Below, piece by piece: positions 21,001-24,000 of a DNA stretch of 64,000 nucleotides (position 1 is its first letter; every line of letters starts with the position of its first letter). The DNA is from a virus. Its lineage: Duplodnaviria; Heunggongvirae; Uroviricota; Caudoviricetes. Made by a program: the position numbers. Location: IMG/VR virus record IMGVR_UViG_2721755646_000010; one strand, 5' to 3'.

Positions 21001-24000
21001 TTGGTTAAATATCTTGTTGAATTTTAAAGCATACTCCCAATATGCAAGATAGATCATCCAGCATAATTGAAGGGTAGCGAGGATTCGTGGGGACTAAAAG
21101 AATATCCGGCCCTTCTATCTCCAGTTTGCGAATGACAGGCGTTGTGGTCCCTTTGGGTAAGGCAAGGACAATATTTCCTGGTTGTACGATTCGATCGGGA
21201 TCAACAAAAACTGTTGAACCATTTGGGATGGAAACTCCACCACCAGATGTCGACATACTGTCACTCTCTAGAACAACAGCAAAGGTATTGGCCGGGATTT
21301 CTCCGACAAGCTGCACACAAGAGGTTATTGAGGAATTTTTCATATAATCACTCCAGCTTGCTGCCTGCTGAAGTGATAGTAGCGGAACCGTTTTTATCGG
21401 CGGTAAAGATAGATCAAGCGAATCACCTGTATTTAACTCTCCTCCATTAAGAAGCCAATTTTCGTTTACTTTCAATATCTTTGCCAGTGAACTTATGTAA
21501 CGCGAGGACGGCGCTCCTCCACCGTTCATCCATTGACTTACGGAGCCTTTTGATGCGCCAGTGGCATTGACAAGGTCTTTGCCTTTCAAGTTTAGCGCAT
21601 GCATACGTTGGGTTATGCGTTCAGATATTGTTTGCTTGTTCATGTTTTGATTTTAAAACACAGATGGTTTTGTTTCTTGACTTTCTTTGGTTTTGATTAT
21701 TAAACTTTTGGCGTTCAGTTTTATGGAGCGACTCATGAAAAAATCAGAAGTATTAGGCTATTTTGGCGGAGTTGTTAAAACAGCCGCCGCTCTAGGAACG
21801 TCAAAAACCACAGTCAGCATGTGGGGGGAAGACGTTCCGTGGAAATGGGCGTTGCTAATTCAGGCAGTCACTGCCGGGGCGCTCAAATATGAGTTACACA
21901 TACCGACGGTTGTCATTCCCGATTCTGATCATAATCCGCCTTCTAACCAAGGGGGGATTCATGAAAATCAAGCATGAACACATCCGCATGGCGATGAATG
22001 CCTGGGCGCGTCCTGATGGCGAAAAAGTTCCGGCAGCTGGAATAACCCAGGCTTATTTTGAGTTGGGTATGACGTTTCCTGAACTGTACGACGACAGCCA
22101 TCCGGAAGCCCTGGCTCGCAATACCCAGAAAATTTTCCGCTGGATAGAGAAAGACACCCCTGATGCAGTTGAAAAAATGCAGGCTCTGTTACCGGCGATC
22201 GAAAAGGCAATGCCGCCTCTGCTGGTGGCCCGTATGCGCAGTCACAGCTCTGAATATTACCGTGAGATCGTCGAACGGAGGGATCGGCTGGTGAAAGATG
22301 TGGATGATTTTGTCGCAGCGGCGATCGCCTGGGGCACCCTGACTAACAGTGGGGGTCAGCCTGGTAATGCTGTTGTCGTGCATTGACCAACAATATTCAT
22401 GCCGGATTTCTTCCGGATGTTCGAGGGTAAAGTTCGGTATCAGAAGAGGTGAGTATGGCTAATGCCTGGCTCAGATTGTGGCATGACATGCCAAATGACC
22501 CCAAGTGGCGAACGATTGCCAGGGTATCAGGACAGCCAATCGCAACAGTGATGGCAGTGTATATCCATCTTCTGGTGAGCGCGTCACGAAATGTCACGAC
22601 ATGTCACGGCGTGTCACTACGTGGTCACATTGATGTCACGACGGAAGATTTAGCAAGTGCGCTTGATGTGACGGAAGACGTAATTGATTCAATTTTGCAT
22701 GCAATGCAGGGGCGGGTTCTGGATGGTGACCTTATTTCCGGATGGGAAAAACGTCAGGTGCTGAAAGAGGACAATGGTAACGTTTCGCAAACGGCAAAAT
22801 CCCCGGCAGAGCGCAAGAGAGCGCAGCGGGAGCGGGAAAAGCTGCGGAAACATAATGCTGATTGTCACGATGAGTCACGACGTGTCACGCATCTGTCACG
22901 ACAAGTCACGACAGATAAAGATACAGATAAAGATACAGATACAGAATTAAACCCCACACATAACGCGCGCGAGAGTATTCCGACCAGTGAGTCGAATGGT
23001 GCGCCGTTGCAGACAGCCGAACCTGAATACCTGGACGGCCTGAGCGAACCGATCGGGAAATTTTCGATGACTACTGTCTGGCAGCCGTCGCCGGATTTTC
23101 GACAACGGGCAGCAGTGTGGGGTATGGCTCTGCCTGAGCCGGAATTTACACCTGCTGAGCTTGCCGCATTCCGGGATTACTGGATGGCGGAGGGGAAGGT
23201 TTTCACGCAGGTTCAGTGGGAGCAGAAATTTGCCCGCCACGTGCAGCACGTCAGGGCACAGGTAAAACCAGTCAGCAAGGGGGGAAGCCATGCAGCATCA
23301 GGTGGCACGGCATCACGGGCAGTTCAGGAAATCCGGGCTGCACGCGAACAGTGGGAACGTGACAACGGATTTATCAGCAACGGAAACGGCCTGGAAGCTG
23401 TGGGAGCTCATGGGGGAGGTGTATTCGAACCGCTGGACTCAGAAGAACGGGGCCGCACCTTCGAAGCTCTGGATTGCCCAGATTGGTGCGATGACTGAAC
23501 AGCAAATCCGTCTGGTGTGCCGTCAGTGCATGGACCGCTGCCGGGCGGGTGAAACGTGGCCCCCGGACCTGGCTGAGTTTGTTGCGCTGATTTCGGAGAG
23601 TGGGGCAAATCCATTTGGTCTTACGGTGGATGCCGTGATGGAAGAGTACCGGCGCTGGCGCAATGAATCCTGGCGATACGACGGGAGTGATAAATACCCG
23701 TGGCCACAGCCTGTGCTGTACCACATCTGCCTCGAAATGCGTACCAGAGGGATTGAGCGCCAGATGACGCAAGGTGAGTTAAAACGACTTGCGGAACGGC
23801 AACTGACGAAATGGGCAAAGCATGTTGGTAACGGGATGAGTGTTCCGCCAGTGCGACGACAACTGGAAGGGGCGAAACACCCGCAAGGGCCAACGCCAAT
23901 TGAACGGCTGAAACAGGAATACGAACGCCGGAAGGCAGCTGGTTTTATTTGAATCTGAGAAACGATTTTGTCGGAGGAAATATTAATGGAAACCGTATTT

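Follow-up and report, generated by a model that had tools for sequence, protein, structure and literature searches.

The initiator gene of a lambdoid prophage replication module contains, within its own coding sequence, two arrays of short repeats and an adjoining AT-rich (GATAMA)n tract, which together are probably the replication origin of that module, overprinted on the gene. We analysed the surrounding 64,000 nucleotides (nt) of viral DNA, hereafter the window (IMG/VR record IMGVR_UViG_2721755646_000010, Caudoviricetes), in which positions 22000-24200 lie in the early-right operon of the prophage. The initiator gene (22455..23498, + strand; 347 amino acids, aa) matches PHROG families of replication initiation proteins, and a direct comparison with E. 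coli O157:H7 Sakai showed 100% identity to ECs_2206, a gene of prophage Sp11. A candidate lambda-style origin had been proposed at this place from the window's sequence alone (the original prediction). Our comparisons uphold that reading through the frozen synonymous sites of the repeat cores, the concerted change of repeat motif among homologues, the constraint on the tract and a minimum of predicted duplex stability.

Two arrays of phased repeats lie within the initiator gene

Array 1 (22583..22640, + strand; aa 43-62) comprises six GTCAC(G) units whose GTCAC cores start at 22583, 22593, 22603, 22613, 22624 and 22635, in steps of 10, 10, 10, 11 and 11 base pairs (bp). Four of them are exact GTCACG, the unit at 22613 reads GTCACT and that at 22624 reads GTCACA. 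Array 2 (22864..22910, + strand; aa 137-152) consists of five exact GTCACG units at 22864, 22874, 22884, 22895 and 22905, with spacings of 10, 10, 11 and 10 bp. Six and then five GTCACG repeats at roughly 10-bp spacing, inside the initiator's coding sequence, were what the original prediction described; this was borne out, with two array 1 units inexact. All eleven units share the + strand, both arrays fall within the open reading frame (ORF) 22455-23498 at about 280 bp from one another, and the 6+5 copies have in common an asymmetric core, (A/G)TGTCACGAC, repeated at a period of 10-11 bp. A single inverted copy of the core (22668..22673, - strand; GTGACG on the + strand) is kept at the same gene position in most homologues of the GTCAC clade, and in a GTAACG-type homologue (L025) the equivalent site is GTTAC.

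The word GTCACG occurs 35 times across the 64 kb against 27.7 expected, an enrichment that is not significant. When the same 64 kb were searched for any 5-mer recurring four or more times in a row at 10/11-bp steps, these two arrays alone were found, and 200 dinucleotide-preserving shuffles produced no chain of that length. The clustering of GTCACG, not its abundance across the window, is non-random.

Array copy number differs among relatives, at four versus six units. We noted that a 21-bp insertion in array 1 (22603-22623), which holds two units and encodes TCHGVSL, is common to E. albertii and several E. coli copies including prophage Sp6, and is absent from all distant homologues, from phage Tritos and from Shigella. 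Since it amounts to 10+11 bp, this indel is frame-neutral.

The repeat cores are constrained as DNA

The cores occupy all three reading frames (G TCA C, GTC AC and GT CAC), encoding SR, VT and CH or GH. They are therefore a repeat of DNA and not of peptide, and a peptide-repeat explanation is ruled out on the same ground. To look at the constraint across species, we assembled a homologue set of 59 loci in which bacterial genomes were represented at one per species, and took from it 21 non-redundant members of the GTCAC clade, sharing 58-92% protein identity and drawn from gamma- and betaproteobacteria. At conserved residues, we compared the third codon base inside the cores with that elsewhere. 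A single codon was used at 97.6% inside cores versus 51.7% elsewhere in these 21 species-level homologues, and codon entropy was 0.14 bits versus 1.50 (Mann-Whitney p=5e-5). Within cores valine was always GTC, glycine always GGT and histidine always CAC, and serine was TCA in 20 of the 21. The spacers between cores vary freely; the cores do not. On this comparative evidence the arrays are constrained at the DNA level, and what we observe is the pattern by which iteron origins are recognized, at least three helically phased direct repeats conserved beyond coding needs.

The two arrays share their changes of motif

Of the 59 loci, 24 retained GTCAC arrays, which lie near gene nt ~129-160 and ~387-418. 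In those two positions more distant homologues have instead CGAACGC (at least 12 loci), GTAACG, GTGACG or CTACGTA, and within any one gene both arrays carry the same motif. The peptide encoded by array 1 shifts along with it, from SRNVTRGH to SNATERGRT, and the differences between clades are concentrated in the array-1-coded loop and in a basic helix after aa 105. Motif does not follow host genus: GTCAC occurs in loci of Pseudomonas (L010, L028) and of Serratia (L009, L017), and other loci of these genera have CGAACGC (Pseudomonas, L033) or CTACGTA (Serratia, L049). This independence argues that the reader of the motif is phage-encoded.

Some distant homologues (L040, L030/31/43) lack array 1 and keep array 2 and the tract. 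Because it is array 1 alone that these members drop, array 2 plus tract looks like the core of the element and array 1 like an accessory, as far as comparison of the loci can tell. L040 has seven array 2 units, at gene nt 345-412, and no array 1. Other departures were seen as well. The first CGAACGC array of L053 lies about 60 nt further downstream (gene nt 193-230), within the region coding for the predicted helix-turn-helix. In L049 and L056, from Serratia and Pantoea, clusters of a CTACGTA(G) palindromic repeat at gene nt ~320-380 and ~650-690 replace the iterons, and the proteins, at 397-435 aa, have an extra domain inserted after the N-terminal domain.

A (GATAMA)n tract adjoins array 2

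Directly after array 2, a 12-bp tandem repeat of 2.9 copies, ACAGATAAAGAT (22911-22945), encodes DKDTDKDTDT, the repeat and peptide linker that the original prediction had placed behind the arrays. It forms most of an AT-rich tract (22911..22963, + strand) that we presume to be the DNA-unwinding element, and at which the N- and C-terminal modules of this mosaic gene are joined. The (GATAMA)x5 core at 22914-22943 has 27% GC. The tract is always translated as D-K/D-T, with codon choice far narrower inside it (GAT 110/112, AAA 66/69, ACA 42/43) than outside it in the same genes (GAT 260/485, AAA 237/437, ACA 73/388), and this bias persists in hosts of 60-69% GC. It holds the least stable 30- and 50-mers of the initiator gene, and the 30-mer at 22921 ranks 10th of 5971 in instability within 20000-26000. 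Among E. coli copies its length differs by 6-bp steps, from 3 to 5 hexamers.

On its right the tract is adjoined by a GC-alternating hairpin-like element, CCCCACACATAACGCGCGCGAGA (22952-22974). The CCCCACACATAACGCGCGCGAGA element is common to prophage Rac-SA53 and other C-terminal modules of the DnaT type, is not found in Tritos, and its only flag was that of a terminator-like site on the minus strand.

The initiator and its neighbouring helicase loader

The N-terminal domain (aa 1-100; 22455..22754, + strand) is predicted to be a winged-helix, 'replisome organizer'-like domain, and is the presumed reader of the iterons. The AlphaFold2 model has a predicted local distance difference test score above 90 over most of this domain, which appears as a helical domain with a beta wing. 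Its PHROG matches, phrog_10469 (6e-9) and phrog_4880 (6e-6), are to 'DnaD-like helicase loader' and 'replisome organizer' families, and close homologues are named 'phage replisome organizer' in their sources. In Pfam scans, run on the full protein and on the N-domain alone, no family was found for the N-domain and no Phage_rep_O; PF09681 gave no match for the window protein, and for a relative E=0.18 only. Foldseek searches of the N-domain against PDB returned winged-helix proteins and RepA_N initiators at E>0.7 only.

In the same model, array 1 encodes a lower-confidence loop between two N-domain helices, and array 2, which opens the low-confidence interdomain linker, encodes with the tract aa 137-163 of that linker, which is probably disordered. 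Both would be places able to tolerate constraints imposed by the DNA.

The C-terminal domain (aa 196-270; 23040..23264, + strand) is DnaT-like and predicted to bind single-stranded DNA (Pfam PF17948, E=3e-17; PDB DnaT chains, E=1e-20). It is the sole region with significant Foldseek matches (4ou6/6aeq, TM 0.9), and the RefSeq label of the whole product is DnaT-like ssDNA-binding domain protein. The protein does not qualify as a DnaT orthologue, since its 94.5 bits with the NCBIfam equivalog NF002770 fall below the cutoff of 201 and the alignment is confined to aa 196-271. The original prediction had called the gene O-like. The term holds by analogy of role; the protein is not a Phage_rep_O homologue and its C-domain is DnaT-like. 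With an N-domain that has no Pfam family and only organizer and DnaD-like matches in PHROG, the initiator is, by these sequence searches, O-like by role and not by descent.

The next gene was expected to be P-like, and is. The lambda-P-like helicase loader gene (23410..23952, + strand) matches Pfam Phage_lambda_P (PF06992, E=1.3e-15) and aligns with phrog_109 (E=1.5e-62) and phrog_33198. In RefSeq the gene begins at 23491 and encodes 153 aa. Its matches to Pfam and PHROG extend in frame ~30-80 codons further upstream (region 23290-23952), which makes the ATG at 23410, with GGGAG just upstream, the probable start; the product would then have 180 aa, and the gene would share 89 nt with the initiator gene, read in a different frame.

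Modules recombine at the tract

BLAST breakpoints fall at 22915-22946, within the tract. Phages Evi and Tritos match the window at ~85% until 22940-22946, beyond which they have a DnaD-like C-domain and lack P. Rac-SA53 shows the reverse, with ~87% DNA identity from 22915 onward and a DUF1376 N-domain that is free of GTCAC repeats. In a complete circular P. aeruginosa phage, the same N-domain, with 4+4 arrays, is joined to a different C-domain and accompanied by the phage's own DnaB-like helicase. Judging from these junctions, the N-domain with its arrays and the C-domain with P are separate modules that recombine at the tract. A search of plasmids for an autonomous mini-replicon of this type found only large plasmids bearing prophages and two 51-kb circular P. 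aeruginosa phage genomes.

We also scanned IMG/VR for exact (GATAMA)x4, which identified at least 120 loci (L068-L187). Among the matches listed, 112 of 120 can be read in the D-K/D-T frame as part of an ORF of 60 aa or longer. These 112 ORF loci divide into 37 of the present N-domain family, 9 DUF1376-type initiators (L072, L083, L115 and L146 are examples), 32 other proteins of 200-450 aa with the tract at aa ~100-190, and 34 unclassified cases, many of which are low-complexity stretches from metagenome-assembled genomes of giant viruses. Of ten 'other' proteins checked among these matches, eight match PHROG families of replication initiators or organizers. The hexamer tract thus recurs where domains meet in many unrelated initiator families, organizer-type, DUF1376 and several other PHROG families among them. 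Most of the 29 loci inspected have short family-specific repeats upstream of the tract, ~10-12 bp apart where regular. These repeats, direct as well as inverted, include GTGAC, GTAAC, GAAAC, TTCAACG, CAACG, TACCC and others; example loci are L078, L101, L121, L151, L161 and L184.

We tentatively suggest, as a possibility that we hold with less than even confidence, that short lineage-specific iterons, a (GATAMA)n tract and an exchangeable C-domain make up an origin cassette that is general among the initiator genes of proteobacterial phages and was previously unremarked. The tract may serve both as a portable unwinding element and as a homology patch for shuffling modules of origin specificity and of helicase recruitment. 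If the cassette reading is true, a change of iteron in the window's family necessarily alters the protein that reads it, because array 1 and the loop of the DNA-binding domain share nucleotides.

Proposed mechanism and functional status

We propose that the winged-helix-like N-terminal domain would bind the 6-8-bp cores. As the cores are phased at one helical turn, initiator protomers would be aligned along a single face of the helix, forming two clusters separated by about 280 bp. The resulting nucleoprotein complex, together with transcription from the early rightward promoter, would melt the adjacent AT-rich tract, and the DnaT-like C-domain and P-like loader would bring host DnaB onto the opened strands. 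We infer each of these steps (binding by the N-domain, melting of the tract, loading of DnaB), as well as any activity in the present, defective prophage.

Several observations weigh against the origin reading. The AT content of the tract is only moderate (about 65-73%), and its uniformity could in part reflect tandem slippage and recombinational spread instead of selection for melting. The fold assignment of the N-domain, model and searches together, is weak (no Pfam family, Foldseek E>0.7); we found no clade-specific residues in its predicted recognition helix; and its co-inheritance with the arrays is partly forced by their physical overlap. In Sakai, Sp11 was negative for amplification, circularization and packaging after mitomycin C (PMC2669165, Table 2), although its integrase is disrupted (PMC2669165). 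Sp6 of the same strain was positive for circularization, replication and packaging (PMC2669165). The Sp6 module is near-identical to that of the window, with 150 of 160 N-domain aa identical, 6+5 units, the tract, the DnaT-like domain and P. Because Sp6 replicated with such a module, the module type is probably active; this Sp11 copy may be silent.

The arrays here might bind the initiator and act in regulation, through roadblock autorepression of the early operon or handcuffing control of copy number, with replication starting elsewhere; plasmid iterons do both of these jobs. The ~280-bp separation of the arrays would allow looping, and the homologues that have array 2 and tract without array 1 (L040, L030/31/43) suggest that array 1 may be accessory. 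We nevertheless think this unlikely: array 2 abuts a conserved AT-rich tract that appears constrained as DNA, the classic arrangement of iterons plus unwinding element, the 64 kb contain no second repeat cluster of this kind, and regulation by the arrays would be additional to, and compatible with, their being an origin.

It is quite improbable that a protein other than the N-domain reads the repeats, whether a host factor or the phage's YdaT/cII-like or DUF1627 product. A host factor is hard to reconcile with motifs that differ among phages of one host genus or with a single motif that spans gamma- and betaproteobacteria. Nearby DnaA boxes do not exceed chance. The N-domain and arrays also travel with very different neighbours in Tritos, the P. 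aeruginosa phage and Sp11. Such a reader would fit the predicted recognition helix, where no specificity-determining residues were found, and the linkage of arrays to N-domain carries less weight here in that overlap forces it. We give almost no credence to repeats without DNA-level function (products of slippage, peptide repeats in tolerant loops or relics of a dead prophage), a view already disfavoured: arrays and tract do encode low-confidence protein regions, copy number is variable (four versus six units, 3-5 hexamers) and the defective Sp11 did not replicate, but the cores lie in three reading frames, their synonymous sites stay fixed between species whose homologues are 58-92% identical as proteins, spacers vary while cores stay constant, and both arrays switch motif together.

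The origin reading thus weighed provides a concrete, testable origin for a module that is present, whole or in part, in 2517 of 5426 complete E. coli genomes (about half), its carriers including several effector-carrying O157 prophages. Phased short repeats followed by (GATAMA)n offer a simple signature for locating origins in many phage initiator genes, and the clade-specific motifs are natural specificity variants for studying the co-evolution of initiator and iteron in overlapping nucleotides.

Genomic setting

The window matches Sp11 of E. coli O157:H7 Sakai base for base from 20943 to ~34200, and the Sp11 prophage that it contains is defective. An S24/helix-turn-helix (HTH) repressor-like ORF (21005-21643, - strand; 212 aa) has HTH-like and Peptidase_S24 matches; the RefSeq annotation covers its last 113 codons only, and the Sp11 repressor was described as disrupted in the Sakai paper (PMC2669165). 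It is followed by a P22_Cro-type gene (21687-21977), a YdaT/cII-like gene (21889-22386), the initiator and the P-like loader, and the gene next after the loader is of the DUF1627 type. Positions 1-20900 hold the tail end and cargo of a neighbouring tandem prophage, with nleG effector genes and insertion sequence elements, after which come a truncated integrase and RecE remnants of Sp11.

DnaA boxes occurred at chance level only, with none in the origin region, and a scan for promoters and terminators gave no signal exceeding shuffle expectation. Gathering-level Rfam matches in the window were DicF, sok (with a hok/mok gene), sar RNA and STnc100, and there are two tRNAs; the coordinates of these RNA features are 19310-19361 (-), 26571-26745 (+), 5935-6001 (-), 32061-32233 (+) and 31039-31291 (+). 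The first tRNA is tRNA-Met (CAT) according to ARAGORN and tRNA-Ile according to RefSeq.

Comparison with known systems

Our literature search found no earlier account of these iterons or of the tract, many subscription journals lying outside its coverage. Most likely we are dealing with a familiar design, an iteron origin in a phage initiator gene, in a family for which no earlier description was found. It is not a new principle, since lambda established the layout decades ago.

In lambda, iterons and an AT-rich tract sit in the central part of gene O (PMC7466680). The present element resembles lambda ori, and the six-iteron origins of Shiga toxin (Stx) phages, in its place mid-initiator gene and in the AT-rich, interdomain-linker-coding region that follows the iterons. 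As with O and P, the N-domain would read the iterons and the C-terminal part would work with the adjacent P-type DnaB loader, a division of labour that we draw here from sequence, and the unit stands in the pR operon after cro- and cII-like genes. The lambda-like layout of the original prediction therefore stood in its iterons within the initiator gene, its AT-rich flank and its P-like next gene, and failed in the sites themselves: lambda has four to six 19-bp sites with internal dyad symmetry, whereas here asymmetric 6-8-bp cores form two arrays. Unlike in lambda, moreover, the initiator lies outside the Phage_rep_O family, its C-domain is DnaT-like, and one array is within the region coding for the DNA-binding domain.

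Among Gram-positive phages, the N-terminal organizer domains of SPP1 G38P (oriL inside gene 38) and Lactococcus Tuc2009 Rep2009 bind direct repeats in their own genes, and replisome-organizer phages of this group encode a separate loader or helicase downstream. The window protein gives weak but significant matches to PHROG organizer and DnaD-like families; it differs in its proteobacterial hosts, its other C-domain and loader, and the lack of PF09681. Iteron origins of theta plasmids with a winged-helix Rep (pPS10, F, RK2) likewise place phased direct repeats beside an AT-rich unwinding element and encode the reader in cis, but their iterons are ~17-22 bp long and intergenic, whereas those described here are ~10-11 bp, coding and without DnaA boxes. 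E. coli DnaT, a primosomal protein of the PriA restart pathway, is matched by aa 196-270 in both the sequence and the fold of its ssDNA-binding domain; the N-terminal half of the window protein is unrelated to it.

The YdaU-YdaV system of the Rac prophage (Rac-SA53) has the same DnaT-like C-domain, P-like loader and (GATAMA)n linker, and differs in its DUF1376 N-domain and its lack of GTCAC arrays. In Rac-SA53 ydaU (L002 2943-2977), a perfect 10-bp inverted repeat, TGTTCAAACA/TGTTTGAACA, which may be that gene's own initiator site, precedes the gene's AAAGATACAGATACAGAT tract by about 20 bp.

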